From the NCBI GenBank assembly GCA_963719085.1, contig CAVRAL010000001.1, positions 1,312,001 through 1,376,000 on the forward strand: a stretch of DNA of 64,000 bases, given 5' to 3'. Under the pieces are notes generated by a model. That model ran no database searches, was not told the DNA's origin, and was given only the letters and a program-made list of their open reading frames with translations. This document shows positions 7,089-28,900 of this stretch, in pieces. Every line of letters begins with the position of its first letter. Position 1 is the stretch's first letter. Both the position numbers and the translations under genes were made by a program. The stretch comes from a candidate division FCPU426 bacterium. GTDB taxonomy: Bacteria; Oederibacteriota; Muellerivitia; Muellerivitales; Muellerivitaceae.

Positions 7089-7125
7089 AAAAAAGCCCTT
7101 AGGCGGAATGCTTAAGGGCTTTTTT
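7089..7125. terminator. Bidirectional intrinsic terminator
   Basis: AAAAAAGCCCTTA...TAAGGGCTTTTTT between convergent genes. Confidence 0.8.
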
Positions 7126-7191
7126 AATTTCACGCTAGTTTCGAGTCAAAACAATCTCCGTCAATTCTCAAACCGAACCCTTTTAATTTGT

Positions 7192-7767
7192 TCAGGGATG
7201 AAACTTTTCGCCCTTCGAAAGCATTTCCACGAATTGGTTTATCCGTTTGCGCCGGGTTTCAGGTTTTTTCGCCGTTTGAAGCCGGTAAATGATGGAATAC
7301 ACATTGGGGCGGCTCAAACTTTCTAAAAAGACCTTCGCTTTTGAATTTTTACTGACTTCCCGCAAAAAATCCGCCGGTAATTCGGCTGAACTTTGCGATT
7401 GGTAGGCTTTCAACCAACGTCCGTCTTTTTTAGCGGATTCGATTTTTTGTAGTCCTACCGGTTTCATGCGGCCCGCTTTGATTAGGCGTTCGGCATGGCC
7501 GACATTGATCTTCGACCAAGCACTTTTCGACTGTCGCGGGCCAAATTTCTGCAGCCAGGCCTTATCATCAAAAGCCGCCTTTTGGCCGTCAATCCAACCG
7601 TAGCAAAGGGCTTCGTCCAAAGCTTCCGGGTAGCTAATCGAGATGACTTTAGAATCTTTCTTAAAAATTTTCAGCCAAACACCCTGAGACGCGACATGAT
7701 TTTTAGCGAGCCATTTTTTCCATTCATGGGCCGATTTGAAAGAAACGATTTTTAAGTCTCTGGCCAT
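7192..7767 (-). CDS. YdeI/OmpD-associated family protein
   Basis: EALDEALCYGWIDG, WSKIN, AKKPETRRKRI motifs. Confidence 0.88.
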   Translation of the reverse strand: MARDLKIVSFKSAHEWKKWLAKNHVASQGVWLKIFKKDSKVISISYPEALDEALCYGWIDGQKAAFDDKAWLQKFGPRQSKSAWSKINVGHAERLIKAGRMKPVGLQKIESAKKDGRWLKAYQSQSSAELPADFLREVSKNSKAKVFLESLSRPNVYSIIYRLQTAKKPETRRKRINQFVEMLSKGEKFHP

Positions 7768-7786
7768 TTTTAAACGTTCCTTTACT

Positions 7787-7814
7787 GGTCCAACCCGGGG
7801 CCCCGTCGCGGACA
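7787..7814. repeat. Degenerate copy of 28-bp palindrome TGTCCACGACGGGTCCCCGTCGTGGACA
   Basis: ggtccaacccggggccccgtcgcggaca; right arm well conserved. Confidence 0.6.
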
Positions 7815-7956
7815 CCCGATCCCATCACATTGATTTTAATAAGGGAATTTCAAGATTTTCCATCAACTTCCCAGTAAAAATCGCTATCTTTTTTTCCCTT
7901 TAATGTCTAACGTACAAGCCAATATCAAGGCTCTAGGAAGCCAAAAGGAAATCGCA

Positions 7957-8214
7957 ATGGATATGTTGAACAGCAACCCCACGGAAACCGAGGCGGTCCC
8001 CACCTCCGTTCCAGCCCCCATGCCCAGCACCCCGGAATCGGCCGCCACTCCGGCCCCGACCCCCGCCCCTGCGCCGGTCGCAGCCGTTAAGATTGAAGTT
8101 GCAAAAACGGATAAAAAAACGGTTGGCGGATGGAACCGCTTTGCGGGCTACAACCCCAATGCCGCGAAAAACAAGCCAAAGGACGGCCGCAAAGGCCCCG
8201 GTGGCCGTAAGTAG
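7957..8214 (+). CDS. Small Pro/Ala-rich hypothetical protein with basic C-terminus
   Basis: AAGGA RBS; terminator 8253-8300 follows. Confidence 0.5.
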   Translation: MDMLNSNPTETEAVPTSVPAPMPSTPESAATPAPTPAPAPVAAVKIEVAKTDKKTVGGWNRFAGYNPNAAKNKPKDGRKGPGGRK

Positions 8215-8252
8215 TTCTAAAAAGGGCACGCGTTTCTTTTTCGTCTGGAAAT

Positions 8253-8300
8253 AAAAAAGGGCCACACAGTACGCATCGAGCGTGAAGAGTGGCCCTTTTT
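8253..8300. terminator. Intrinsic terminator
   Basis: AAAAAAGGGCCAC...GTGGCCCTTTTT. Confidence 0.65.
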
Positions 8301-8374
8301 GTTTAACCCTTAGCTCTTAAAACATATGGGTCCAGTTGGAGTTCCCCCGCCTTAGTGGGCGGTCCATCTGTCAA

Positions 8375-8430
8375 TTGTCAAGCCTGACCCTTTTACCTCT
8401 ATATGACAGGCCGGCGCTCTAACCAAGCTA
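8375..8430 (-). pseudogene. Decayed tRNA-Asp fragment / old att scar
   Basis: tgacaggccggcgctctaaccaa (8404-8426) matches tRNA-Asp 20662-20684 at 22/23 positions; weaker similarity continues leftward. Confidence 0.65.
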
Positions 8431-8439
8431 AAAATATTG

Positions 8440-9057
8440 TTATTTCAATACGCACCAAAAATTATCATCTTCAGCGCCAACATGGGCTTCTGGAGTGGTA
8501 GGTTGGCTCATACAAGCAACAACCTGTCCATCGCTATACTCCAAATACAAACCACTGGAGCTTTGAAATGTATAAACATTTGAGCCGTCCGGATCCACGC
8601 GCAGGAAAGTTATAGTCCACAAATGATTATTAGAATTGGCAAGACTATCTAACATTATTAAAGCTTTTGAATAATTGGTACCAAAAGGTCCTTGAATCAA
8701 GTAATAAACATTGGATCCATCAGAAAAATTATTACTGTAAATTGGCGTAACAACGGTTTGGCCTACCGCAGTAGGTATTGAGTTCATGCACCATTGGAAG
8801 TTTCTTGAACCGTCCGGAGGAGAAACTACGGTTTCTTGTTTATTGGTCATTCCGGCGCCATAAACATTAAGCCCGTATCTAATTTTATTTTTAGAACACC
8901 TCGAAAAAGTGTTGATGGTATAAACACTTGTCGGCGTAATAGCGCTTGCTTCACTTAAAAAACCAGAAATTAAATAAACGCTAACTAAACCAACGATAAT
9001 AAAAACCCCAAAAAATAAACTATTATTAAACCAAGTGGTCTTTCCGATCATATGCAA
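8440..9057 (-). CDS. AT-rich exported hypothetical protein (possible beta-trefoil-like C-terminus)
   Basis: N-terminal hydrophobic segment; low GC; fold guess is weak. Confidence 0.6.
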   Translation of the reverse strand: MHMIGKTTWFNNSLFFGVFIIVGLVSVYLISGFLSEASAITPTSVYTINTFSRCSKNKIRYGLNVYGAGMTNKQETVVSPPDGSRNFQWCMNSIPTAVGQTVVTPIYSNNFSDGSNVYYLIQGPFGTNYSKALIMLDSLANSNNHLWTITFLRVDPDGSNVYTFQSSSGLYLEYSDGQVVACMSQPTTPEAHVGAEDDNFWCVLK

Positions 9058-9648
9058 GTCACCTCAAATAATTTAATTTAAACACAGCCAATTTTATCCC
9101 TGCATGTTTCGAAAACCGTTCACCTTCATGTCGACTATAACTTGAAGGTGATCCTCAATCAAAACCGTCTACCAATTTGATCCTTAATAAACACCGGCAG
9201 CAAAAAATCTGCAGTTAAATAATCCCCACCAATAATAGTATTGGTTAAATCGTATTGTTCGGAACTAACTAGTGCAGCACCAGCAGAAACAAAACCGCCA
9301 TTTGACGTTCAACCGCCAGAAACAATAAAATCAAATAAAGATATACAAGCTAAAGAAATTAATTTCGTCATACATTCCAATCCGATTTAAATTTCAAGTA
9401 TTGTGCCTTTTTTTAAACATATATATCAATAATAAAATGTACCAAAATATTTTTTTACATTCCCATAACACAAACCACTGCAAGAGAACAAAGGGTCGAA
9501 TAGTCCATGCTTTCCCCAAATACAGACACAAAAATAAAAAGCCTAAATTGGAAACCCATGTTGGGGCCTTATTTATATGGCGGGGGCATAAACCCTCCAG
9601 GGGGGCTACGCCTGGATCTCTATCGCCCCACCAACCCTCCACCGCAAA

Positions 9649-9687
9649 TAAAAAAGCCCCCAAATGGTTGTCCATTTAGGGGCTTTT
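9649..9687 (-). terminator. Terminator following the displaced tRNA 3' end
   Basis: AAAAGCCCC-CAAATGG...CCATTT-AGGGGCTTTT hairpin. Confidence 0.7.
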
Positions 9688-9693
9688 ACTAGT

Positions 9694-9739
9694 ATGGCGG
9701 GGTTGACGGGGCTCGAACCCGCGACCTCCTGCGTGACAG
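9694..9739 (-). repeat. att core (duplicated 3' part of tRNA-Asp, 46 bp)
   Basis: Identical to 20622-20667. Confidence 0.95.
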
Positions 9740-9794: not shown

Positions 9795-10907
9795 TCACTC
9801 TGCCGACTTAGCGATCTGTCCGTTTGTCATACTGGTGTCATTGTACTTTTCCACCTGTTTAAAGGCGTCCTCCCGGTCTTTCCGGTCGATCCGGTTGTAC
9901 CGTTTGAACATGGCATAAGTCTTATGGCCTGATATCGACATAATGACTGAATCGTTCACTCCCGCTTTCCTCAAATTAGTCACCGCGCAATGCCTAAGGT
10001 CGTGAAACCTGAAATCCACGATCCCCGCCTCGCGCCGGGCGTTGGTGAAAGCGGTTTTAATATCATCCATACGTTCGCCCTTATGGGTGAAAACATAAGG
10101 ACTTCCAAGGGTCTTAGGCGTCCGTTTCAAGAGTTCAATCAAAGTCTCCGTCAACGGCACTTCCCGTTTTTCTTGGGTTTTAGTGTCGGCGGCTTCCAGC
10201 GTAATAACCTTATGCTGAAAATCCACCTGCTCCCACCTTAGGCCCAAAATTTCACCCTTCCTCATACCCGTCCAATAAGCCAACTGGACAATGGTACTGA
10301 TACGGGGTGAACACCGCGCCAAAAACACCTGGTATTCCTCAGGTGATAAGGTACGGTCACGGGATGCTTCCTTGAAGGCTCGGACCCTCTGAATCGGGTT
10401 CTTCTCCGACAAACCGTTAAGAACAGCCCGATTCAAAATGCACTTGAGGATACCCAAGTCCCGGTTAATGGTGCTGTTAGACAGCGACTTCCCAAAACGG
10501 TTTTTTCCTGGACCCTGATTCCCGGCCTTCCGCCGATGGTTCAAAAAGCCTTCCACGAGGTCCGGGGTAAAACTCGTCAAGGGCCTGTCACCAAAATAGG
10601 CCTTGAGTCTGTCCACCATTTGGATGTCGTTTTCGTAGGTCTTCCTTCGCACTTCGGAATACCCTAGAAACGAATCCGCCGCCTCGAAAAAGCCCGGTTC
10701 CGGTTTGCCTTCGGCCAAAAACTTGCCCGCCACAATTTCCTGCGTATGCTTGGCAAGGATTAATCTAGCCTGGGCCGCCGGAATCTGTCCCAATCGGACC
10801 CTCTTACGCTTCTTAATTCCCCCTTCTTCGACAAAATAATCTAAAAAATAACCCTTCAAATCCTTTCGGAGATGTTCGGGCAATCCATGAACATTAGGTT
10901 TACTCAT
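9795..10907 (-). CDS. Tyrosine recombinase / phage integrase
   Basis: TGMRKGE, KT, FHDLRH, SGHKT, Y catalytic residues (R-K-H-R-H-Y). Confidence 0.96.
   Translation of the reverse strand: MSKPNVHGLPEHLRKDLKGYFLDYFVEEGGIKKRKRVRLGQIPAAQARLILAKHTQEIVAGKFLAEGKPEPGFFEAADSFLGYSEVRRKTYENDIQMVDRLKAYFGDRPLTSFTPDLVEGFLNHRRKAGNQGPGKNRFGKSLSNSTINRDLGILKCILNRAVLNGLSEKNPIQRVRAFKEASRDRTLSPEEYQVFLARCSPRISTIVQLAYWTGMRKGEILGLRWEQVDFQHKVITLEAADTKTQEKREVPLTETLIELLKRTPKTLGSPYVFTHKGERMDDIKTAFTNARREAGIVDFRFHDLRHCAVTNLRKAGVNDSVIMSISGHKTYAMFKRYNRIDRKDREDAFKQVEKYNDTSMTNGQIAKSAE
9824..9841. promoter_or_regulatory. Putative integrase arm-type sites ((T/G)TGTCAT x2)
   Basis: Same motif occurs three times at 20464-20491 near the other att. 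Confidence 0.6.
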
Positions 10908-11106
10908 TACGTCCTCCCAATGTCCCTAGCGGCTCAATTGTATCAGGCTTGTGAAAAACCCGGTTAAACTCTGAAAGCCATATCCGCGGGTGTTTCCCCA
11001 CCTTTACAAAAGGCAATACCCCAGTTTGCCGCCAATACTTAACCGTATTGGGGCTAACCTTTGCTAATTGGGCTACCTCTTGATCCGTTAATAAGCTATC
11101 AGCCAT
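10900..11106 (-). CDS. Excisionase-like HTH_17 protein
   Basis: LLTDQEVAQLAKVSPNTVKYW...G.LP..KVG; overlaps integrase start. Confidence 0.88.
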   Translation of the reverse strand: MADSLLTDQEVAQLAKVSPNTVKYWRQTGVLPFVKVGKHPRIWLSEFNRVFHKPDTIEPLGTLGGRNE

Positions 11107-11229: not shown

Positions 11230-11619
11230 CTAAGAAGATTCCCCCTCCCCTGCTTTAGCCTTCTTTTTTAACCCCTTTTTAATTTGAAGCTTTATGGCTT
11301 CAATTTCGGCTTTTAAAGCCGTTTCAACGAACTTCGTATCCTCATCCACGAATAACCCCCTCTTATCCCTAACATCCTTCAATTTGGCCTTCACTTCTTC
11401 CAACAGGGCTACTTTTTCGAGGATTAGCCCCCCGGACTTCTTTTTGAATGCTTCGCCTTCCCCTTCCATCCATTCCCGAAGCTTTTCTTCTCCCCTTGCC
11501 CTTCGAATGAAAGCTTGAAGACCGCAGGCATCACATATGAAATACGGTTTTGCTTTCACCGTTTTCTTAACTTCAACCATTCCGCCACATAAAAAACATG
11601 GGATTTTGTTTAATTCCAT
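11230..11619 (-). CDS. Zinc-ribbon (CxxC...CxxC) coiled-coil hypothetical protein
   Basis: CFLCGG...CDACG followed by a helical, Lys/Glu-rich region. Confidence 0.7.
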   Translation of the reverse strand: MELNKIPCFLCGGMVEVKKTVKAKPYFICDACGLQAFIRRARGEEKLREWMEGEGEAFKKKSGGLILEKVALLEEVKAKLKDVRDKRGLFVDEDTKFVETALKAEIEAIKLQIKKGLKKKAKAGEGESS

Positions 11620-12783: not shown

Positions 12784-13659
12784 TCAATCAGAAGTAATTT
12801 TATTTAACCAAGATTTCACAATCTTCAGCGATTCTTCATTACTATTGTAATTTTCGTATATCTTATGAAAAAAATCGGAGGGCATTTTTTGAATATTTTT
12901 ATTTTTCAAAAGCAAACACTTCCGCTGCAGGAAATGCATCATTCCGAGTTCATATGTGACATTTGGGTTGAAGATCGGTTTCCGTGGCAAAGAATCAAAT
13001 ATAGCTATGCCATATTTGGAACTTATTAAACAAGCTTGCCAGTTATACATGTCGTCAGTTAAAGAATGTTCATTCGCAATAATGGCATTGAACGTTTTAT
13101 CGTTTTCATGATATTCGTTAATAGTTTTTTTTATCGCAAGATACAGCTTACTACTTGCTTTTTCGTAACGAGTCATAATAAAAACATTGGTATCAAAAGG
13201 ATATTTTTTTAAAAATTTTTCTATTTTCCCGACATGTCCAACCAAATGAGGTGGAAATAATTCCGAAGGTAAATCCGGAATACTTTGAATGAACCCCAGA
13301 TGTTGAATTGCAGTTCCCGGCGCCCCCCCAAACTTAAGGGTATTTATAGTCAATAAACCGATTATTTTTCGTATGTCTTTTAACTTTAATCGAAATTTAG
13401 ATTTATTAATTTTTTTCGTAATATTCGAAAACACGTATTCAAATATTGGCTCAACTTGACTCAATAAGTCTGTATTGCTTTTTGTAGCGCTAAAAATAAC
13501 CTTTATGTTCTGCGACCAGGTGAAATAGAGTTCGTTTAACCGTTCTTTAAGCGATGAATCAGTAATGGTTTTCGTACTGATCTTTGAAATGTCGCCAATG
13601 ATGGCGTCCAGTTCCTGATTAAAAACTTTAATCTTTACCATCAAATGGCTAGATGTCAT
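12784..13659 (-). CDS. Protein with C-terminal TIR-like / nucleoside 2-deoxyribosyltransferase-like domain
   Basis: NVFIM, YGIAIFD, FNPNVTYELG, LLLK, MPSD motifs. Confidence 0.7.
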   Translation of the reverse strand: MTSSHLMVKIKVFNQELDAIIGDISKISTKTITDSSLKERLNELYFTWSQNIKVIFSATKSNTDLLSQVEPIFEYVFSNITKKINKSKFRLKLKDIRKIIGLLTINTLKFGGAPGTAIQHLGFIQSIPDLPSELFPPHLVGHVGKIEKFLKKYPFDTNVFIMTRYEKASSKLYLAIKKTINEYHENDKTFNAIIANEHSLTDDMYNWQACLISSKYGIAIFDSLPRKPIFNPNVTYELGMMHFLQRKCLLLKNKNIQKMPSDFFHKIYENYNSNEESLKIVKSWLNKITSD

Positions 13660-14141
13660 TTTTTAGAAGAAGCTATTAAATTCAAAACGATATCTTCTCC
13701 ACTAGTTGTGAGTGCAAAAGTCCTTTTATTTTCTTCATTTTCACCCGCTCCCATCATTAACCCTTGCTTGACTAACTTAGAAACGGTGTCACTGATATTT
13801 GTGAATTTTGATTGCTTAGCGTTTTTACATAATTCAGCAATGTCAGATGTTGTGAAATTGGGCTTATCGAGATTATTTTCCAAAAAATAAGCTAATGCCA
13901 AAGCTAAATCAGCTTGGCTTTTTGGTGAAACTTTTTTCCTTATAAACTCGCTAGGAGCCAAAGCCTTATCAATCGGCTTCGAAACCGCTTGCGCAGCCGA
14001 AGGAATTACCATAGAGTCGCCAAGATTATTTTTTTTATGTTTGGCAATAAATTCTTCAATTTTATTTTCCACATACTTCTCAGGTCCCGTAACTTCGACG
14101 GAAAAATTCCCTAATTGTACTTTTATTGTTACGTTCGGCAT
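13656..14141 (-). CDS. Winged-helix hypothetical protein
   Basis: LAYFL...FTTSDI...NISDTVSKLVKQG...FALTTSGE; GAGGA RBS; ATGA overlap with next gene. Confidence 0.75.
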   Translation of the reverse strand: MPNVTIKVQLGNFSVEVTGPEKYVENKIEEFIAKHKKNNLGDSMVIPSAAQAVSKPIDKALAPSEFIRKKVSPKSQADLALALAYFLENNLDKPNFTTSDIAELCKNAKQSKFTNISDTVSKLVKQGLMMGAGENEENKRTFALTTSGEDIVLNLIASSKK

Positions 14142-14347
14142 TTGTTTCCTCGATTCAAAACTTAATGTTATTTGGATATTGAAATGCAAAGGAACTGCAT
14201 CTCCGCAGTATACAGCTATCGTTTCCAGGCACATCGCTTTAATCAGATAATTCTAATTCGCAAACTACTATCTGGGTTAAATCTGAAAAAGCAAACTTCT
14301 GTCAAAGCAGACATTTTTAAATAATCAACGGCTTGTGGCATTTGAAA

Positions 14348-14749
14348 TCAATGTTGTTCGATGTACTCCTGAATCTTCTTCTTAAACTCAATCGGGCTTT
14401 CAATACATTTATAAACTTCTCTAATACCGCCGGAACTCGCAATAATAATTGTACCGTAATTCAACCATCTCCCGAATATCCCCTGGTTTACAGCGATATT
14501 TGAAATTTTGTTTAACTGTGTTTCCAACGTGCGAGTTTCAAAAACACCCACTTTAATTAAAGTCCTCTTATCGGTAACTGCAAATTCAGAAGATTTTCTC
14601 TTTATAAAATTATAAACCCCTAAAATGATCCCCAATGGGAAAAATACTATTAACCAAAAAACCGTCCAACGAAAAACGATCCAATGAAATCGCGTTTCAT
14701 AAATAAGTTTTTCGTCATTTGCTAAATTCTCATCAATATAACGGCCCAT
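14348..14749 (-). CDS. Bacterial PH-domain (bPH_2-like) membrane protein
   Basis: One TM region, SEFAVTDKR.LIK.G, QGIFGRWLNYGTI motif. Confidence 0.85.
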   Translation of the reverse strand: MGRYIDENLANDEKLIYETRFHWIVFRWTVFWLIVFFPLGIILGVYNFIKRKSSEFAVTDKRTLIKVGVFETRTLETQLNKISNIAVNQGIFGRWLNYGTIIIASSGGIREVYKCIESPIEFKKKIQEYIEQH

Positions 14750-14900: not shown

Positions 14901-15671
14901 TCAATTTTGAGTTCTCGTTCTATTTTCAAAAAGGAGTTTTTTGAAGATCACTTCGTTGTGGTAAAACACACTTTCTTTGCTAACCAAATGGTCCTTAGCT
15001 ATCTTTAATTTGAATTTATTTAACGCTATAGCGCCGAAGTCCAATAAAACATGATGTAAAGGACACACACAAATAACATTTTCTACTTTATCCGAGCCCT
15101 TGTGTTGTCGACCCAATGGCCTTATATGATGGGCTTCAGAATAGAAGTTTCCACGGGACAATCGAATTCGTTTGCCACATACCTGACACCGATGTTGGTG
15201 CATTTCCTTTACCCATCTGGAAACTTTGGTATCTCTAATAATTCGATAACTTTCTTTAAGCAACCTTCTTATCTCTTGAGAACCTTTAGGCATGTCGAAA
15301 GCCCGTAGTCGTCGCCTCTTAATATTTTGCGCTTTCATTTTTGAGGCTTGTTCCGAGGTTCGGATCATTTGTCTGACTTCAGAGTACTTAAAATTTCTAT
15401 AGCCAGGAACGGCCGATATACCTTTCTTAACATGCAAATCATGCCCATGTTGAAAATATTTATTTTTCTCATAGGTCTTACGATTGCGAATTACTAAATA
15501 GCCGCCTTTGTCAAAGAGCACACCCGGGAAATTTTTTAGGCTGTGATACCACTTACCGTCCTTACGATATAAGGCATGTTTTGCCCCAAGGCCAAAGTGG
15601 GCATTCAACATCTTTCCAGTTAACTTTTCAGAGTTTTTTTTATTTATTATATTTTTCAAAACATTGTCCAT
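14901..15671 (-). CDS. HNH endonuclease
   Basis: CQVCG...EAHHIRPL...GSD...NVICVCPLHH...D; distinct N-terminal domain (ALYRKDGKWYH). Confidence 0.88.
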   Translation of the reverse strand: MDNVLKNIINKKNSEKLTGKMLNAHFGLGAKHALYRKDGKWYHSLKNFPGVLFDKGGYLVIRNRKTYEKNKYFQHGHDLHVKKGISAVPGYRNFKYSEVRQMIRTSEQASKMKAQNIKRRRLRAFDMPKGSQEIRRLLKESYRIIRDTKVSRWVKEMHQHRCQVCGKRIRLSRGNFYSEAHHIRPLGRQHKGSDKVENVICVCPLHHVLLDFGAIALNKFKLKIAKDHLVSKESVFYHNEVIFKKLLFENRTRTQN

Positions 15672-15690
15672 TTAATCATCAAAAAAATAA

Positions 15691-16479
15691 TTAGACCGCG
15701 TAAGGACGCCGAAGCGAAAGATACCCTTCGACCGTTTTCACAATTTGAATTGAAGCACCATCATCTATGTCAGGAACACCAATGACTTTAGAAATCCAAG
15801 CCATTTTTCCATCACGCCTAACTATCCAATTCGACAAGACTCCAGAACTATCCTCAATTTGAATTTCGCCATTAGGAATTCTAATTGTAGACGCAAACAT
15901 AATTGCTCCATCAGTCGCACTATACTTTCCAAATCCCAAACTTTCTTTCCGAACATCTAAAGTCCCCTCAACACCATAAGCTACAACACCATTGCCAGTT
16001 CGAAAGACAGATACAGAAAGCATCTGAACATCCAAACCTAGTAATGCGAGTTCCCAAGAACGAAAATTTTTGTTAGCTACGACAGCAACGCGCTTGGGTA
16101 CGTTATCTAAAAAATTAACAGCTTGTCCTCGGGAGATATCCAAGCTACTAGCCAGAGTACTAATACAATCATCCTCCCAGCGACCGTACCTTAGTACCTG
16201 AAGTTGAGGCAATACATGTTGCTCAAGAGAATGTGATACTAATTCCACCTCGATAACAAACCAATGAGAAGCGTCTGGAGCAACAAGTGCCAAATCCGCC
16301 CTAGATTTCCGGCCTTCAAAGCTGAAGGTCCCCCTAAATGGGATGCACTTATAGCCAAGCCTAAAACACATTAAAGCCTTTGCCACTTCGCTTTCAAACT
16401 GAGCCTCAGTGAAAGAGACAGGATCAACCAGTCCAAACCGACGATCATCTGAACACTCTCCTACCATAACCATCTTCAT
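15691..16479 (-). CDS. Putative PD-(D/E)xK-fold nuclease (E...RAD...IEVE variant)
   Basis: FTEAQFE, RADLALV, WFVIEVEL; ATGA overlap with helicase stop. Confidence 0.6.
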   Translation of the reverse strand: MKMVMVGECSDDRRFGLVDPVSFTEAQFESEVAKALMCFRLGYKCIPFRGTFSFEGRKSRADLALVAPDASHWFVIEVELVSHSLEQHVLPQLQVLRYGRWEDDCISTLASSLDISRGQAVNFLDNVPKRVAVVANKNFRSWELALLGLDVQMLSVSVFRTGNGVVAYGVEGTLDVRKESLGFGKYSATDGAIMFASTIRIPNGEIQIEDSSGVLSNWIVRRDGKMAWISKVIGVPDIDDGASIQIVKTVEGYLSLRRPYAV

Positions 16480-17639
16480 GCCTTGCCCCATTCCACTTTG
16501 GCAATTCCTTCCATTTCCCGTTCCTCTTCTTTTAACCGTGCCACTTCAGGATCAGTCGCGACCAATGTATAAACAACAGCATTACTCTTATCATGGGAAG
16601 GGCGCAAAACTCTCCCAAGTCTTTGAATGCGCTGTCGCCTTGTTGCCGTGCTCGCAGCGACAATCCCGATTTCAACTTCAGGAACATTAAAGCCTTCATC
16701 CAAAGCACGACATGTAACCAAAACATTTATTATACCTTTTCTAAAAGCAGCCAGTGTTTCAGCTCGCTCCCGTAAAGGTAATTTAGAATGATAGACGCCA
16801 GCTTTTACAGAGTTTGTCGTGAGCACTTCATAAATCAAATTGCAAGCTTCAATGTCTTCGTGAAAAACAAGAATCCTTCTTCCTGCGTTCTTCCGAACGA
16901 GACGCAACGCCAACTTTACGCGATTCAAACTCATATTTAAAATACGGCTCCTGCGCAATAACAGCGCTATGGTTTCTTCGGCTTCTATCCCTCGGCTTTG
17001 TATTGAGCGCGCAATCGATCGAGTTAACTTGTCATATTCCCTTTGATTATCTTCCTCCAAATCAAAAACGATATTTTTCAAAACGAAAGGAACAATTAAT
17101 TTGTCACGAAGGGCATCTTTATATGTATATTCGTAAATTACATTTCCAAGCTGCGGAATTAATATTTCCGTCAACCAATCATCGTAAGCACGCTCAGGGG
17201 TTGCAGAAAGTCCCAATGATGCTGATCGAGGAACCTGGAAAATGTTGCGGAACTTCTCACTTGCAGCTTTATGACATTCATCAACAATTAGAAGGCAGGA
17301 CTTACCCAAGTGTGCAGATGCTTTGGACCAATCCAATTTCGCAGCTGAATTCAAAACCGCAATATTGATCGCCCCACGCCTGAATCCTTGGCGCTTATCA
17401 ATTATTCGTATGTCGTCGAGTTCGAGTCCAAAGTAGTGGCTAGCTTCTTCCCACCACTGTTCAAGCAATGCTAACGTGGGAACTACAATGAGAGTTGTTT
17501 CTGGCGAAATCTCTTTGATGCAGGCAAGAGCAAAAACAGTTTTACCGGCACCTGTAACAACACTGGCGATACCCTTATTACCTGCCGCTTTCCAAACCTT
17601 TAGGGCTTCCTTTTGCCATTGTCGTAATTGGTTGCTCAT
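16476..17639 (-). CDS. SF2 DEAH-box helicase (XPB/ResIII-like)
   Basis: LRQWQ, TGAGKT, DECH, SATP, LDEGFNVP, QRLGRVLR. Confidence 0.93.
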   Translation of the reverse strand: MSNQLRQWQKEALKVWKAAGNKGIASVVTGAGKTVFALACIKEISPETTLIVVPTLALLEQWWEEASHYFGLELDDIRIIDKRQGFRRGAINIAVLNSAAKLDWSKASAHLGKSCLLIVDECHKAASEKFRNIFQVPRSASLGLSATPERAYDDWLTEILIPQLGNVIYEYTYKDALRDKLIVPFVLKNIVFDLEEDNQREYDKLTRSIARSIQSRGIEAEETIALLLRRSRILNMSLNRVKLALRLVRKNAGRRILVFHEDIEACNLIYEVLTTNSVKAGVYHSKLPLRERAETLAAFRKGIINVLVTCRALDEGFNVPEVEIGIVAASTATRRQRIQRLGRVLRPSHDKSNAVVYTLVATDPEVARLKEEEREMEGIAKVEWGKA

Positions 17640-17648
17640 TTTTATCGC

Positions 17649-19238
17649 CTATGAAGTTGTAGGCCTTGACGAAGAAGATGCCTCAGGAACATTCGACGCA
17701 GCTTCCCTTTCAGTTGCTGCCTTGTTCTCAATCCTAACAATTTTGGCCTTAAGAAGATCATTTTTGAGACGACGGACACTGTCAGGATTCACGCGACCTT
17801 GCAAACTTGTAACGCGAAATTCCGAAATAGCATCATAAATAAACTGCCGCAAACACTCTTCGATAGCTTCGGTTGAATAAATTGAAGAGTAGTATGGATG
17901 AAGACCGTTGACAATGATATGGATGACCCCCTTTTCAGCCCCAGCCTCAATCGTAACATAGGGATCGTGCTCGCTTCTTTCCTGTTCTGAGACTATCACT
18001 TTCAGATCAGACAAAACTTCGAGAGTATATAGACGATCGTCCACGCTGAGTGAAGCGACTTGTTTAGCATTATTGGCTTGAATCGTCTCAACTGGAGGTA
18101 ATACCACCGTACTAATTGCATCCTTGATCTCAGGATTTACGAATTCCGAAGCCATACTTTCAACCAAGTCCTTCATCTTTTCTTTTGACCATGATTGCCC
18201 TCGATCGCCCCGACGACTTTGAGCATACTCCCGATATGTTTTTGTTGCGTTTTCAAGATATCTTTCCAATTCCTCTTCTTCATTTCCTTGAAAAAGAATC
18301 GCATCCTTTGTATGAGAAACCTCAAAACCATCCAACTCGATGACTCCAGCGAGACGTTGGGCAATAAGATTATTTGCACCCTCATCATCAACACCGCCAA
18401 ATATGTTACTCGGCTTCCAAGCATTTGGGACACCTTGGATTTGACGCCCATGTTGGAATAAGGAAAAACCTGCCCATTTTCTGCCACCACTCCCTTTACG
18501 AAGGACACCAAACCACCCCTTCACTTTCTTCCCTTCAATATTTACATCAAATTCTTGTTTCATAGACTTACCTTCTGCATCGGTATCGATAGCATATTTA
18601 TCAATACTGGTAACCGCCTCACCGTTATAAGTAAGTTTCAAAACACCTGAAGAAAGGTCAAACCGATACATAGAGCCAAAATAAGTACGAATGGTATCTT
18701 CAGTTCTTTTCTGAATGTGTCTATTCAAATCAGAAATGATAATACGAGTGTAGTGTAAATTTTTATCTACGGGGCGGGACGTCAACGGAACGCGGGCGCG
18801 CCCTTCGACAATCGCGTTTACATCAATATCTGCCGTCCACTCAATACCACTATCCCATTCACAAGTAACTACCTGCCACCGTCTTCCTATCCAACACGCG
18901 GCCGTCTTCAATCCCATTCCATACTTCGATCGCCCCTTACTATCGCTAGTAGGATTAGCGATTTTAAGGGCTTGAATTAGCTTATCTTTAGTCATTCCAA
19001 TTGAATTGTCCTCAATGGTTATCGTCTTTTGTGTTTTGCTGTGAATTATATCAACCACTAGACCTGTGCCTTCCGCCTTGAAAATATCATTCACAATTCC
19101 GCCATAATTCGTGCGCGATTGAGTCGAATTATCAATAAACTCGGCGAGCGCATACCACATCGTATAAGGCAGACGGCTAAACTGACTAATGGCGCTTACA
19201 CCAACAGTTAAATCCGTTACATCATTTTCCTGTTGCAC
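17649..19238 (-). CDS. MORC/GHKL-family ATPase
   Basis: ALAEFIDNS, IEDNSIGM, SKYGMGLKTA; S5-like region (GFSLFQHGRQI); GGAGG RBS before GTG. Confidence 0.88.
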   Translation of the reverse strand: MQQENDVTDLTVGVSAISQFSRLPYTMWYALAEFIDNSTQSRTNYGGIVNDIFKAEGTGLVVDIIHSKTQKTITIEDNSIGMTKDKLIQALKIANPTSDSKGRSKYGMGLKTAACWIGRRWQVVTCEWDSGIEWTADIDVNAIVEGRARVPLTSRPVDKNLHYTRIIISDLNRHIQKRTEDTIRTYFGSMYRFDLSSGVLKLTYNGEAVTSIDKYAIDTDAEGKSMKQEFDVNIEGKKVKGWFGVLRKGSGGRKWAGFSLFQHGRQIQGVPNAWKPSNIFGGVDDEGANNLIAQRLAGVIELDGFEVSHTKDAILFQGNEEEELERYLENATKTYREYAQSRRGDRGQSWSKEKMKDLVESMASEFVNPEIKDAISTVVLPPVETIQANNAKQVASLSVDDRLYTLEVLSDLKVIVSEQERSEHDPYVTIEAGAEKGVIHIIVNGLHPYYSSIYSTEAIEECLRQFIYDAISEFRVTSLQGRVNPDSVRRLKNDLLKAKIVRIENKAATEREAASNVPEASSSSRPTTS

Positions 19239-20238
19239 TTTTCACCCTCCTGTTTTTTTTAATCAATTTTCCAAATCGACCAACCGAGCCTCTTATATAT
19301 TCTTTATTCGCCTCAATGGATAACCAACGACGCTTCAATGACTCGGCAGTCGCCCCAGTCGTATTGCTTCCACCAAACGGGTCCAAAACAAGATCCCCCT
19401 TAACGGTTAGAAACTTGATAAAAAATTCCGCCATTTCTTTCGGCATACGAGCCGGGTGAAAAGCTATATTTTTTTCTTTGCAATATTCCTGATAAGGATC
19501 GTTTGTTCTAGTATTTGAAAAAATCAAGACATTGCTAGGAATGGCCCCGCCGTTTTTAGTAAGAAATGAAGTCTCCCCAATGTTATGTTCGGAAGGGCGT
19601 TTACCGGAATTATACTTTTGGGTCTTTAGCAACCGTTTCATAGACTCGCTGTATTCAACGAGCACGCGCTTATTGTTTGCCTTAGGAAATGCATCTTGCG
19701 ACATCCACCAAATATGGGTATATGCATCTTTTACTCGAATGCGCCGGACATTCACCCATTCAGCTGGTCCCGGTAAACGAGCAGGGTTATACCAAACAAA
19801 TTGCTGGCAAAGCTTCAAGTGACCCAAATCCAGAAACGCAAGAAGAGATCGCAGAGCAAGTGTCGACATCACTGGTTCGCCAGGCTCCCATGCATTGCCC
19901 ATTTCGAGAACAACAGACCCGCGCGGCTTCAAGAAATAATTCAATTCTTTGGCAAATCCCGAAAGCCACTTCGTGAATTCTTCCCCTTCCTTGTTTCCAT
20001 ATTTTTTTTTGCGGTTCAGCGGAAAAGGCGGGGAAGAAAAAATTAGATCGACTTTACCTTTATATTTTTCAAACATTTTCGACTTTAGAACAATTTCCGA
20101 ATCCCCGTGAATCATGGCTCCCAAACTAGTCCTATAAGCTATTTTCGGTTTTTGAATACTGATTTTTTCCAATGTCGTTCCAAATTCAAGAAAATGTTTT
20201 AGTGATTCTAACCGAACATCATTCAAAAGAGAACTCAA
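19222..20238 (-). CDS. Beta-class N4-cytosine DNA methyltransferase (M.PvuII-like)
   Basis: SSPPF motif IV N-terminal, DPFGGSNTT motif I C-terminal, EWVN.RRIRVKDA and HPARM blocks as recalled for M.PvuII; start codon uncertain. Confidence 0.9.
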   Translation of the reverse strand: MSSLLNDVRLESLKHFLEFGTTLEKISIQKPKIAYRTSLGAMIHGDSEIVLKSKMFEKYKGKVDLIFSSPPFPLNRKKKYGNKEGEEFTKWLSGFAKELNYFLKPRGSVVLEMGNAWEPGEPVMSTLALRSLLAFLDLGHLKLCQQFVWYNPARLPGPAEWVNVRRIRVKDAYTHIWWMSQDAFPKANNKRVLVEYSESMKRLLKTQKYNSGKRPSEHNIGETSFLTKNGGAIPSNVLIFSNTRTNDPYQEYCKEKNIAFHPARMPKEMAEFFIKFLTVKGDLVLDPFGGSNTTGATAESLKRRWLSIEANKEYIRGSVGRFGKLIKKNRRVKSATGK

Positions 20239-20491: not shown

Positions 20492-20622
20492 TCAAAGCAT
20501 GTTTTTACCATCTCTAACCGTCGACTACCATCAGAAATAAAAAAGACCTTTGCTCGCTCGGGTGATGAAACCCTTACAGGCAAAGGCCTTTGAAAATGTG
20601 CTAGGGACATTTTAATTTGTAA

Positions 20623-20699
20623 TGGCGGGGTTGACGGGGCTCGAACCCGCGACCTCCTGCGTGACAGGCAGGCGCTCTAACCAACTGAGCTACAACCCC
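20623..20699 (-). tRNA. tRNA-Asp (GTC), CCA encoded
   Basis: Reverse complement GGGGTTGTAGCTCAGTTGGTTAGAGCGCCTGCCTGTCACGCAGGAGGTCGCGGGTTCGAGCCCCGTCAACCCCGCCA folds as a cloverleaf. Confidence 0.98.
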
Positions 20700-25983: not shown

Positions 25984-28900
25984 TCAAGCCGTTGTAGGCT
26001 GTGGTTCTTGCGCCTTAGAAGCGGCCTTTTGCATCTTCAATTTCTTCACCGAGAAACGGGACACGGCGTTCTTCGTAATGCTCTTGGCCGACAGCTTATA
26101 TAAATATTCCCCTTCGGCTTTGCCCGTGGCGTCCCAAACGCTGACGGCGTAGGCGCCGCCTTCCCGGCGTTCCTCGATCTTGTCGATCAATCCCCCGGTG
26201 GAATCAAACACTTCCAAGGTGACCTGGCAGTCTTCCTTCAAGAAATAATAAAAGCGGATCGGACCGGGAACTGGCGGGATGGGGAAAAAGCCCATGTCTT
26301 CCACGAATAAATGCGCCTTGCCGTTTTCTTCCGGCTCGAGGGCGATATCTTTCAAACGTAAGACCGGGAATTGGTCGCTGTGCAGGCGGATTTCGTATTT
26401 GCCTTCGGGCATGTTGGAAAAGTAAAAGGCTCCCTTCACATCGGTCACCGCCGTGGCCACCACCTGGTCATTCTTGGCCAGCTCAATTTTGGTTCCTGAA
26501 ACCGGGGTGGCGGCGTCTTTTCGGAAAAAGCGGCCGTTCAATTGGCTGAGTTTGCGGATGATGATCTTTCGATGGGCGGTGAGGGGCGCGGGTTTGCCCT
26601 TGGCATCCACCGCGGCCACATGGAAATACCAGGTGCCTTCGGGGATGTCTTTTAACTCAATGTTGCTTTCCGAGGTGAACACGTCATCGGCGGTGAGCTT
26701 GTCATCTTCCTGACGGCTGAGCTTGTAGATATAGCCAATCGCCTCATATTTGACGTCGGTGTTCGAGCGCAAATGAAAGATCGGGTTAAAAATCGGCGTC
26801 GCTTCGTCTTCTTTGGGATGGGTGGGACTTTCCACCAAAGGCGGTGGAATTTGACTGCCCGCGACCCGCACCGCCAAATGATTGGGGTCCGAGACATTCC
26901 CGGCCCCGTCCCGGCAAACCACATGCAGGTACCAGGTGCCCGGCTCGCCGGCTAAGGCCGTAAAGCCCGATTCAGTGGTGCGGACGACGGTGGAAAGGTC
27001 GGGGATCGTTTTGGCCGATCGGTCGAATACGTAGTAAAAGGCCTCGAACCCTGAAAGTTTCGGGCGGGGCGCCAATTGGAAATAAACCTTGCTGGCCTGA
27101 TACCAACGGCTCTCATCGGGGTGGCTGGTGGAAACGACTTCCGGCGGCGCCGGCCGTTCCAGGTCCACCTTCATACGGTAATGGGCCGGTTCGCTGAAAT
27201 TGCCCGCCCGGTCCCGGGCGACCAAATGGAAATACCAAATCCCGCTCTTGAGATTGCTTAAAGACGCCCGCAATTCTTCCGTGCCCGTGGCCTTGCCGGG
27301 CTCGGGCTTGGTCGTGGGATGCTCATCCAACAAATGGTAATAACCCGCGATGCCGGTGGCGTCCGAGGGGGCTTTCCAAATTAAAAGCGGCGCGGCGTTG
27401 GTGCTCCATTGATCCGGCGGATGGGTGGGGCTGGTAATTTCGGGGGCGTCCACGCCGTGGTCCGACAGGGCCGCGGCGGTTTGGTTGTCCTCGTGCTGTT
27501 CATTGCCCATCTTATCCACGGCCTGGGCGCAGTAATAATAGGCGGTGTTTTCGCGAAGGCCCGTTCCCTTGTCCATGAAACCCGGTTCCTTCACTTCCCC
27601 GTCGATGGAGATTTTTTGCTTTTTCTCGCCCTCGACCCAGCGGTAAACCCGGTAATAGGCGGTGCCCGAAACCCGGTCATTGACCGGATCCCACTTGAGC
27701 TCGATATCCCCATGGGGTCGCGACAAGGCCTTGAGGCTGACCACCGGCGGGGGGGGTGAAATATCCAGCGTCACGCTGGCCATCTCCACCGACGGGAAAG
27801 GTTCCACGTTGCCCACCTTGTCCTTGGCCCGGCAGCGGAAAGCGAAGCGCTGGCCGTCTTGGCCCTGGTAGCTGGCGCCCCTTTCATAAGTGTCCACCAG
27901 CCAATCGGTCCAAGCGCCGTTGGGGCCCGCCTTCACTTGCACATCAAAACAAGCCACGTCGCTTCCGGCGTCCACGGCTTCCCAGGTCACCGGGATTTGG
28001 GTGCGATCGAGGAATAAGGGCAAGGGATTGAGTTTTGATTTCGGCGCCGTAGTATCGATAAAGACCGGGTAATGGGCGGCTTCCCGGCTGAGATTGCCCA
28101 CCTTGTCTTTGGTAGTGATGTGGAAATACCATTTGCCGTCTTTGAGCGCGGGCGCCTGGAACTGGTTGGCCTTGACCCATTGGCCGTTTTCAGGCGTGGG
28201 GATGGTTCCCGGATGGCCGTCGATTAAAAGGTAATAACCGTCAACGCCCGATAGCTCGGCCGGGTCTTCCCAGGTGAATTGCGGAGTCTGGCTTTTCACC
28301 CAGTGATGGGCCGGATGGGTGGCGCTTTTCACCAGCGGCGGCTTGGCGGAAGAATCGACTTGGATTTTAAGACGCCCCGCCTCGCCAAAGTTGCCCGCCT
28401 TGTCCTTGGCCGACACATGGGCGTACCAAACCCCGTCGTCGGGCAGTGTAAAAACCGTATGGGTTCCGGTGATCCAGGTCATTTTTTCCGCCAGCGGTTT
28501 CCAATGCTCTTCGGAATTCACGGCGAAGTAATAGCCTTCGATACCGGATAGATCGACGGGTTCTTTCCAGAATAACTCCACCCGCCGGGCGACCATCCAG
28601 CCTTCGGGATTGGGATGCGTGGGAGACGTCAAAACCGGCGCGGCCACATGGGTATCGACCTTGATCCGGTACCGGGCCGGTTCAGGCGAGGTGTTGCCCG
28701 CGGCGTCCTGACAGATGACGGACAGGATATGGATGCCATCCCGGGGAACGTCGATTTCCAGATCCGTGGATTCTAAAAAGGCCGAGCTTTTGGGATCGGG
28801 CGTTACCTTTTCATCTTCCGAGAAGGTGTAGTAATAACCGGTGATCCCCGAAGGATCCGCCGGGGGATGGAACTTGAACTGGGCCTTGGATTTCGAAACC

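Follow-up and report, generated by a model that had tools for sequence, protein, structure and literature searches.

A 64,000-nucleotide stretch of a candidate division FCPU426 bacterium (GenBank assembly GCA_963719085.1, contig CAVRAL010000001.1, positions 1,312,001 to 1,376,000; hereafter the window) carries an intact 4.6-kb cassette of four genes. These encode an M.PvuII-like DNA methyltransferase (MTase; M), a MORC-type ATPase (A), a Rad25-like superfamily 2 (SF2) helicase (H) and a 266-aa protein (U) that probably joins a nuclease domain to a B3-like DNA-binding domain. Our best explanation, to which we assign a probability of about 65%, is that the cassette is an ATP-dependent restriction-modification (R-M) system of four genes situated on a tRNA-Asp island, and that the HNH nuclease gene which follows it is a separate neighbor.

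The genes had been picked out in an earlier note made from the letters of the window, which described five co-oriented genes between 14901 and 20238 with tight junctions and recognizable motifs, and all of these features were confirmed in the open reading frames (ORFs) and their translations. All five genes are on the minus strand and are, in the order in which they are read, those for the MTase (19222-20238; 338 aa, TTG start), the ATPase (17649-19238; 529 aa, with a GTG start 7 nt after AGGAGG), the helicase (16476-17639; 387 aa), U (15691-16491; 266 aa, with an alternative ATG start at 16479) and the HNH protein (14901-15671; 256 aa). The MTase and ATPase genes overlap by 17 bp, a 9-bp gap separates the ATPase and helicase genes, and the helicase gene overlaps U by 16 bp, or by 4 bp (ATGA) if U starts at 16479; the gap between U and the HNH gene is 19 bp. 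Scans for promoters and terminators scored no higher than expected from shuffled sequence.

The conserved unit has four genes

A survey of the neighborhoods of ATPase homologs, as the earlier note had proposed, was conducted on one-genome-per-species contigs scanned via the ATPase, in which 479 stretches matched the search patterns and 396 encode a relative. The locus counts are based on the best 80 of these 396 relatives, each with 8-kb flanks, and gene orders were read from tblastn matches of the window proteins within 6 kb of the ATPase gene. The order of the window, MAHU, was found in 32 of the 80 loci, MHUA in 21, AMHU in seven, MA in six, the ATPase alone in four, MUA in three, AHU, AHUm and HUA in two each, and mAHU in one (lower case denotes the opposite strand). 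All four genes are present and co-oriented in 60 of the 80 loci, in three permuted orders, and these orders track sequence clades: the ATPase shares about 53-66% identity with that of the window where the order is MAHU, 49-57% where it is AMHU and 33-42% where it is MHUA. Based on their record titles the 80 loci represent many phyla, and since the four genes occur together in 60 of them, the arrangement is far beyond chance.

An M.PvuII-like MTase gene is situated within 6 kb of the ATPase gene in 69 of the 80 loci. The flanks were represented by 1953 ORFs of at least 80 aa lying up to 4 kb from a cassette, and no family among them was shared by more than four of the 80 loci, based on which we consider the cassette to be both self-contained and mobile. 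Annotated relatives on plasmids were limited to two distant, partial matches, and there were none in phages. The HNH protein was matched by tblastn in only two of the 80 loci (L026 and L078), over the HNH motif region alone and never inside the cassette. Based on the co-occurrence of M, A, H and U, and on the near absence of the HNH gene from their vicinity, the conserved unit has four genes, and not the five which the earlier note had taken as one system.

Within this unit the gene most tightly linked to the MORC ATPase is U, a point absent from the earlier note. Profile hidden Markov models built from our own alignments detected U in 75 of the 80 ATPase loci, and of the five loci without it, four (L001, L029, L044, and L074) are cut by the contig end at the ATPase gene and only one (L077) has full flanks. 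Of the 75 U-bearing loci, 67 have the helicase gene immediately upstream of U, and 31 have U immediately upstream of the ATPase gene. In eight loci U is directly upstream of the ATPase gene with no helicase of the cassette family beside it, and four of these were examined. Locus L054 (6287-10534) has M-U-A followed by a PIN_8 protein, while L064 has M-U-A with a DbpA-type RNA helicase as the sole helicase nearby. In L071 (3560-9524) U-A comes after a 758-aa protein that matches no Pfam family and an N6_N4 MTase other than M; this type of variant, from which the Rad25-like helicase is absent, recurs in L079, L080, and L076, on Bacteroidota-type contigs, with a protein of about 755 aa that likewise has no Pfam family. 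In L070 (589-10542) a PbeA-like PLD-helicase, an AAA_23 ABC-type ATPase and another N6_N4 MTase are situated upstream of U-A-PIN_8, and this locus has the appearance of a Pbe/CxC-type system combined with the U-MORC pair. Based on these four variants, the tightest link is that of U with the MORC ATPase, while the helicase and the type of methylase are exchangeable.

The proteins of the cassette

The MTase has the motif SPPF (S69-F72) and, after it, DPFGGSNTT (D286-T294), and matches PF01555 (N6_N4_Mtase; 1.5e-36) and the PADLOC model MTase_II (PDLC03323; 8.5e-90). Its alignment to the M.PvuII structure 1BOO (E = 1e-76) covers residues 32-322, about 290 in all, and includes both motifs. The order of the motifs is that which marks M.PvuII-like enzymes, with motif IV (SPPF) before motif I (FGGSNTT in M.PvuII), so that the description of the protein as M.PvuII-like in the earlier note is well founded. 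It is a beta-class N4/N6 DNA methyltransferase, which we predict to serve as a self-marking enzyme producing N4-methylcytosine (m4C), although m4C at CAGCTG is not inferable from an identity of only about 47%. No family of the R.PvuII or C.PvuII type was found by Pfam in the 14 island proteins or in any of 19 additional small or shadow ORFs, including those of the 380-bp upstream region, which agrees with the earlier remark that neither a PvuII-type restriction endonuclease nor a C protein could be recognized.

The ATPase matches PF13589 (HATPase_c_3; 5e-24), and its GHKL motifs E33/N37, D77-x-x-x-G81, G107-x-G109, and K111-T112 are invariant in all sequences of an alignment of 23 homologs, hand-picked for spread from 120 that were listed; S308-D312 is also conserved. 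The protein has an S5 motif, G257-F-S-L-F-Q-H-G-R265-Q-I, in which, as judged by eye and not on the authors' alignment, 10 of 11 positions fit the signature GhXhhpXXRhl, the exception being a Q at one of the "h" positions. This signature distinguishes MORC from paraMORC1-5 (Iyer et al., 2008; PMC2292703), and its residues G257, F258, F261, R265, Q266, and I267 are invariant in the same 23 sequences. The best Foldseek matches of the predicted structure are to MORC3 (5ix2_B) and MORC2 (9cdj_B), both at 3.3e-16, and to MORC4 (7k7t_A; 1.6e-15), with the MORC modules ranking above Hsp90/TRAP1 and SMCHD1. PADLOC gave only weak matches, to MzaB (0.0058) and to one MTase model. By motif and by predicted fold, then, the protein is a MORC-type GHKL + S5 ATPase, as the earlier note had suggested from its GHKL motifs.

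The helicase has the motifs TGAGKT (T29-T34) and DECH (D120-H123) and matches the Pfam families ResIII (1e-21), Helicase_C (2.3e-17), and ERCC3_RAD25_C (2e-11). Matches to the NCBIfam models for XPB (NF045503; 7.8e-27) and TIGR04095 (1.3e-57) were both below cut-off. The best PADLOC match is PbeA (4.7e-79), which aligns over its positions 252-644 of 672 only, and the helicase is therefore comparable to the PbeA motor without the HKD nuclease. An alignment of 53 sequences (the window protein and 52 of the 65 available references) shows no variation in motifs I, II, III, and VI. Judged from these matches, H is a compact SF2 helicase or translocase resembling Rad25/XPB, to which no nuclease is fused, and its intact motifs uphold the earlier assignment to SF2.

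The protein U has no match in Pfam, PADLOC, NCBIfam, or PHROG; 58 family members compared with Pfam at E ≤ 1 gave scattered single matches only, and the best match of the U profile to PDB sequences had E = 1.8. These 58 sequences, which form our U alignment, are the window protein and 57 others, taken from 59 intact U ORFs of 250-300 aa by leaving out two near-duplicates (L040 and L049); two sequences with in-frame stops (L003 and L019) had been excluded before. Eleven residues are invariant in all 58: E29, D66, W77, E81, E83, H87, Q96, V137, W146, G176, and W222. The AlphaFold2 model (pLDDT 94.8, pTM 0.88) is alpha/beta to about residue 155 and all-beta from 156 to 262. In the N-terminal part a helix (29-42), four strands, a strand at 77-83 and a helix at 89-102 follow each other in an order that fits the PD-(D/E)xK core, and the conserved acidic residues are on the expected elements, namely the helix, the strand that starts after D66, and the strand 77-83 with E81-x-E83.

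The domain calls for U are based on the probabilities, TM-scores and secondary-structure order of a full-length Foldseek search. For the C-terminal part the leading match in the PDB is the B3 domain of VAL1 (6fas_A; E = 3.3e-3, probability 1.0, TMt 0.60, rmsd 3.3, 112 columns), and further B3-type matches are LEC2, ARF1, the N-domain of LlaJI.R1 (6c5d_B; probability 0.99), and BfiI (2c1l; probability 0.57). Among restriction enzymes, beta pseudobarrels of this type, some 100-110 residues long and joined to a nuclease domain, are represented by EcoRII-N, BfiI-C, the R subunit of NgoAVII/CglI, and LlaJI.R1. Matches to PD-(D/E)xK folds include XisH (2inb and 2okf), NucS (2vld), the R2 RLE, Cdn1, and SdaI, with probabilities of 0.60-0.98 and E = 0.011-0.07, and a language-model search gave a lead only to NucS_C (score 0.83). 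Based on the model we consider residues 18-155 or so to be a probable PD-(D/E)xK-like nuclease domain and residues from about 156 to 262 to be a probable B3-like DNA-binding domain. The first of these agrees, at domain level, with the earlier description of the protein as a PD-(D/E)xK-like nuclease, and the second is new. Mean pairwise identity in the family is 25.5% for the C-terminal domain vs. 36.8% for the N-terminal one, and such greater variability is as expected of a specificity domain. Taken together, U looks like a site-reading nuclease and is the predicted restriction subunit of the cassette. Its family comprises 1147 clusters at 50% identity with E ≤ 1e-3, or 361 with E ≤ 1e-30, and with few exceptions the 150 best-listed members have a length of about 260 aa. 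No fused forms were found among longer proteins, although this is weak evidence. A complex prediction for the helicase with U returned no answer (score 0.00, mark 0.32) and has no bearing on their binding either way.

Proposed mechanism and alternatives

From the families, intact catalytic residues, co-occurrence, and predicted folds described above we infer the activities of all four proteins and the order in which they would act. The MTase would mark the host DNA at a short specific site, likely with m4C. The B3-like domain of U would read the same site when it is unmethylated, and the N-terminal domain, through E29, D66, and E81-x-E83, would nick or cut the DNA. The MORC ATPase, whose gene is so consistently found with U, may dimerize on ATP as a DNA clamp and license or position U as MutL does MutH. 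The Rad25-like SF2 motor, with its intact motifs, could then translocate or unwind from the site or nick, and its action would link distant sites or feed degradation, as with the H subunit of CglI or UvrD in mismatch repair. The helicase-less loci indicate that the motor is dispensable in some variants. The earlier note had proposed a type II-style methyl mark coupled to an ATP-driven MORC/helicase restriction machine; the tight operon of M, A, H, and U on which this idea depends is real, while its fifth member, the HNH protein, does not belong to it.

Several observations weigh against an R-M system. We found no experiment in the literature on restriction, methylation, or binding for this cassette family. 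No Foldseek match of whole U reaches E ≤ 1e-3 in the full-length search, and both domain calls are for that reason probable rather than proven; further, U has E-x-E (E81-x-E83) where the canonical motif is (D/E)-x-K. The ATPase model has a moderate pLDDT of 69, and its C-terminal region (about 320-529) is poorly modeled and has no assignment. There is no avoidance of CAGCTG within the window (five occurrences vs. 8.4 ± 2.9 expected), which neither supports nor excludes that site. In-frame stops are present in the best tblastn-derived frames of several relatives, affecting U in L003 and L019, the MTase in L013, L059, L063, and L075, and the ATPase in L008, L027, L041, L042, L065, L066, and L076; these could be decayed copies, sequencing errors in metagenome-assembled genomes, or an artefact of ORF extension. 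Last, the closest named relatives of the helicase are the PbeA motors. An E-x-E variant of the PD-(D/E)xK motif is known from BamHI.

The relationship to PbeA leads to the main rival explanation, which is that the cassette acts in a non-degradative or abortive mode, as in a Pbe-like replication block without cleavage: the MORC ATPase and the helicase would clamp or remodel unmethylated incoming DNA, or would attack host DNA and thereby kill the infected cell, and U would be only the site reader. The helicase is nearest to PbeA, and in Pbe, the one system with a related motor that has been studied by experiment, viral replication was reported to stop with no visible DNA cleavage (PMC6459918), but a later analysis argued that PbeA has an HKD DNase of its own and is likely to cleave DNA (PMC10853773). 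Eukaryotic MORC ATPases are DNA clamps, as in the MORC2-DNA structures among our top fold matches, and the E-x-E of U is also in keeping with a protein that reads and does not cut. Against this, the four acidic residues of U, together with H87 and Q96, are invariant in all 58 sequences, which suggests catalysis over binding alone, and the presence of a cognate MTase fits self-protection against cleavage. We regard this explanation as unlikely.

An improbable alternative is that the cassette is not directed at phages, being instead chiefly a selfish addiction module that stabilizes the island by post-segregational killing, or a methyl-directed repair module. It is indeed situated on a mobile island with an integrase and an excisionase and moves between phyla with unrelated flanks; its MutL-MutH-helicase-methylase logic is that of mismatch repair, and Iyer et al. 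note that such modules were occasionally recruited to repair (PMC2292703). However, addiction and defense are compatible in R-M systems, no MutS-like or Vsr-like gene was conserved beside the cassette in the survey of flanking ORFs, and the patchy, horizontally spread distribution is typical of defense genes.

We give little credence to a five-gene system that includes the HNH protein as an integral effector alongside the MTase, MORC ATPase, helicase, and nuclease. The gene is co-oriented with the others and begins 19 bp downstream of U with no terminator-like site between the two on the minus strand, and HNH nucleases do occur in some MORC and paraMORC neighborhoods (Iyer et al., PMC2292703). 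These facts are countered by the survey, in which the HNH protein was matched in two loci only, by its motif and outside the cassette, and no flanking family recurred in more than four of 80. The protein itself matches HNH_2 (1e-8), has mREase_IV as its best PADLOC match (5.3e-9), and matches NF045808 over the HNH part only, while residues 1-107, where a McrA-like enzyme would have its reader of modified DNA, are not matched by any model in Pfam, PADLOC, or NCBIfam. Its homologs are mostly stand-alone proteins of about 210-270 aa, some of which are auto-named 5-methylcytosine-specific restriction enzyme A. Based on these similarities it is probably a separate, McrA-like (Type IV-like), modification-dependent nuclease and not part of the cassette, a possibility that the earlier note had itself raised; its separateness is borne out by the locus counts and by the stand-alone homologs. 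As for a chance juxtaposition of an orphan MTase with an unrelated ATPase, helicase and hypothetical genes, we count it as refuted, since genes of the cassette overlap at stop and start, and since in 60 of the 80 loci, which represent many phyla, all four share one orientation, in three different orders.

Returning to the four-gene R-M system, the linkage data allow a more specific proposal, which we offer tentatively and at somewhat less than even odds. The U-MORC pair may be the obligate core of a distinct restriction class, in which a MutL-like MORC clamp would use ATP to license a small nuclease with a B3-like domain for reading unmethylated sites, with the helicase and methylase being swappable. 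If so, it would give bacterial MORCs, which were proposed in 2008 as the ancestors of the eukaryotic MORC chromatin silencers, their first mechanistic model. It would also mean that MORC and B3, found later in eukaryotic and especially plant chromatin silencing, were already acting together in a bacterial cassette. The cassette is widespread, with 396 ATPase relatives in the one-genome-per-species contigs and 1147 U clusters, and since it is also compact and intact and its parts are separable, it is a practical entry point to MORC function. This includes how MORC works together with nuclease, helicase, and methyl mark, and a probable nuclease-B3 family for which there is no Pfam model.

The integrative element carrying the cassette

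The genes had been described in the earlier note as cargo of an integrative element, and this is supported by the boundaries, recombination genes and base composition of the region. A perfect 46-bp direct repeat (9694-9739 and 20622-20667) bounds an element of 10.9 kb; its proximal copy (20622-20667) is the 3' part of a tRNA-Asp gene (20623-20699, minus strand, identified by ARAGORN), so that the element is delimited by a repeat of the 3' half of this tRNA. Beside the distal repeat are a tyrosine integrase gene (9795-10907, minus strand; PF00589, 2.2e-31) and a gene for an excisionase-like helix-turn-helix protein (10900-11106, minus strand; HTH_17, 1.1e-8; TIGR01764 excise, 5.3e-6, just below cut-off). 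The GC content is 35-45% within the island vs. 55-60% outside. From these att repeats, the integrase and excisionase, and the low GC content we conclude that the operon is cargo of a 10.9-kb tRNA-Asp island.

The remaining cargo consists of one membrane protein with a bacterial PH domain (bPH_2) and four proteins without families. The membrane protein gene (14348-14749, minus strand; Pfam 4.8e-13, phrog_3707 2.5e-27) lies directly downstream of the HNH gene. It is followed by two minus-strand genes with a 4-bp overlap, 13656-14234 (192 aa) and 12784-13659 (291 aa), both without a family; the 192-aa protein has weak winged-helix leads only (E = 0.02-0.08), and the 291-aa protein a weak lead to the CAP12/Pycsar TIR (E = 0.081), below cut-off. 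This pair may be a second defense module of the island. A 129-aa protein with an N-terminal zinc ribbon (11230-11619, minus strand) adjoins the excisionase and integrase genes and has a weak lead to the Lar restriction-alleviation family (E = 0.026), also below cut-off.

Low GC content extends past the distal att repeat, from 7100 to 9690. A 23-nt fragment in this segment (8404-8426) equals the body of tRNA-Asp at 22 of 23 positions, and a 205-aa ORF has a weak ricin-B lectin lead only; the segment seems to be a relic of an earlier element at this tRNA gene. Outside the island, in host DNA of high GC content, there is an ORF of 1862 aa (25984-31572, minus strand) with many tandem repeats of about 90-100 aa, whose units have recurring SPTHP...W...G..GY motifs.

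Comparison with known systems

The PADLOC run which the earlier note had suggested gave no match of the cassette to a described system, and no system-specific model in PADLOC v2.0.0 or NCBIfam r20 covers the ATPase or U. A PvuII type II system shares the type of MTase, but genes like those for R.PvuII, a small homodimeric restriction endonuclease, and for the controller C.PvuII were not found by Pfam in the island proteins and the 19 small ORFs, and restriction by the cassette is predicted to be ATP-dependent and multi-subunit, unlike that by PvuII. In Type III R-M systems Res, a helicase fused to a nuclease, relies on Mod for DNA recognition; the cassette is not of this type, having a helicase without a nuclease domain, an MTase that is a type II-like relative of M.PvuII, and a separate predicted B3-like reader.

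Hma systems share with the cassette a trio of helicase, methylase, and ATPase that has been proposed to act in defense (PMC8565338). No Hma model was present among the 25 best-listed PADLOC matches of either the helicase or the MTase (18 and 28 weaker matches, respectively, fell outside these), the matches of the ATPase were the two weak ones given above, and U matched nothing. The Hma MTase forms 5-methylcytosine and HmaA carries a DUF3883 nuclease. PbeABCD, made up of the HKD-helicase PbeA, the small PbeB, the CxC ABC ATPase PbeC and the DndE-like PbeD, has the helicase module in common with the cassette, and some Pbe-type systems pair with N4-cytosine methylases. The cassette is nevertheless not a PbeABCD system: its helicase is without HKD, and PADLOC, Pfam, and NCBIfam searches of the island proteins found no PbeB, PbeC, PbeD, ABC ATPase, DndE-like, or dnd genes.

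A functional likeness to R-M systems is seen with CglI and NgoAVII, which have an MTase, an R subunit that combines a nuclease with a B3-like reader, and an SF2 motor, and which cleave by ATP-driven translocation; in CglI the R and H subunits form an R2H2 complex (PMC5861437, PMC4267653). The CglI R subunit has a PLD nuclease vs. the probable PD-(D/E)xK-like domain of U, the CglI H subunit is a 632-aa DEAD-Z1 protein vs. a 387-aa Rad25-like one, and CglI, unlike the cassette, has no MORC ATPase. Membership in this group is rejected because no PLD or Z1 domain was found by Pfam and no sequence similarity was detected, and the likeness is functional only.

A second likeness is to MutL-MutH-UvrD-Dam, an analogy with methylation-directed repair that was drawn for MORC operons in PMC2292703. 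Both sets combine a GHKL + S5 ATPase with a helicase and a cognate methylase, and U is the predicted counterpart of MutH, a small stand-alone nuclease of restriction endonuclease (RE) fold whose site can be methylated. The cassette differs in having no MutS-like sensor, in having an SF2 and not an SF1 helicase, and in residing on a mobile defense island, and homology to the mismatch repair proteins is at superfamily level only.

The best comparison is with the prokaryotic MORC operons of Iyer, Abhiman and Aravind (2008), which have Rad25-like SF2 helicases, RE-fold or HKD nucleases and mostly cytosine methylases, and were predicted to be R-M systems (PMC2292703). The earlier note did not recognize the combination of genes, but a system of this kind had thus already been predicted. 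In our literature searches no experiment that tests a bacterial MORC system came up, and in an October 2026 preprint a defense role for bacterial MORCs is still termed proposed (10.64898/2026.09.30.754977). The cassette shares with the operons of 2008 a MORC GHKL + S5 ATPase with the S5 motif, a Rad25-like helicase, a predicted cytosine methylase, a probable nuclease of RE fold, and a patchy, mobile spread. Some of the MORC neighborhoods hold VP1/RAV (B3) domain proteins, and a B3-type domain is mentioned for the SWI2/SNF2 operon group (PMC2292703). We have set the cassette apart from these operons by their description in the text (sections 4 and 5 of that paper), where the Rad25-like helicases are commonly fused to RE-fold or HKD nucleases, while in the cassette the helicase is bare and the probable nuclease and B3-like domains are on a protein of their own. 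On this basis the cassette belongs to a predicted kind of system, and its bare helicase together with the probable nuclease-B3 protein is what distinguishes it from that description.

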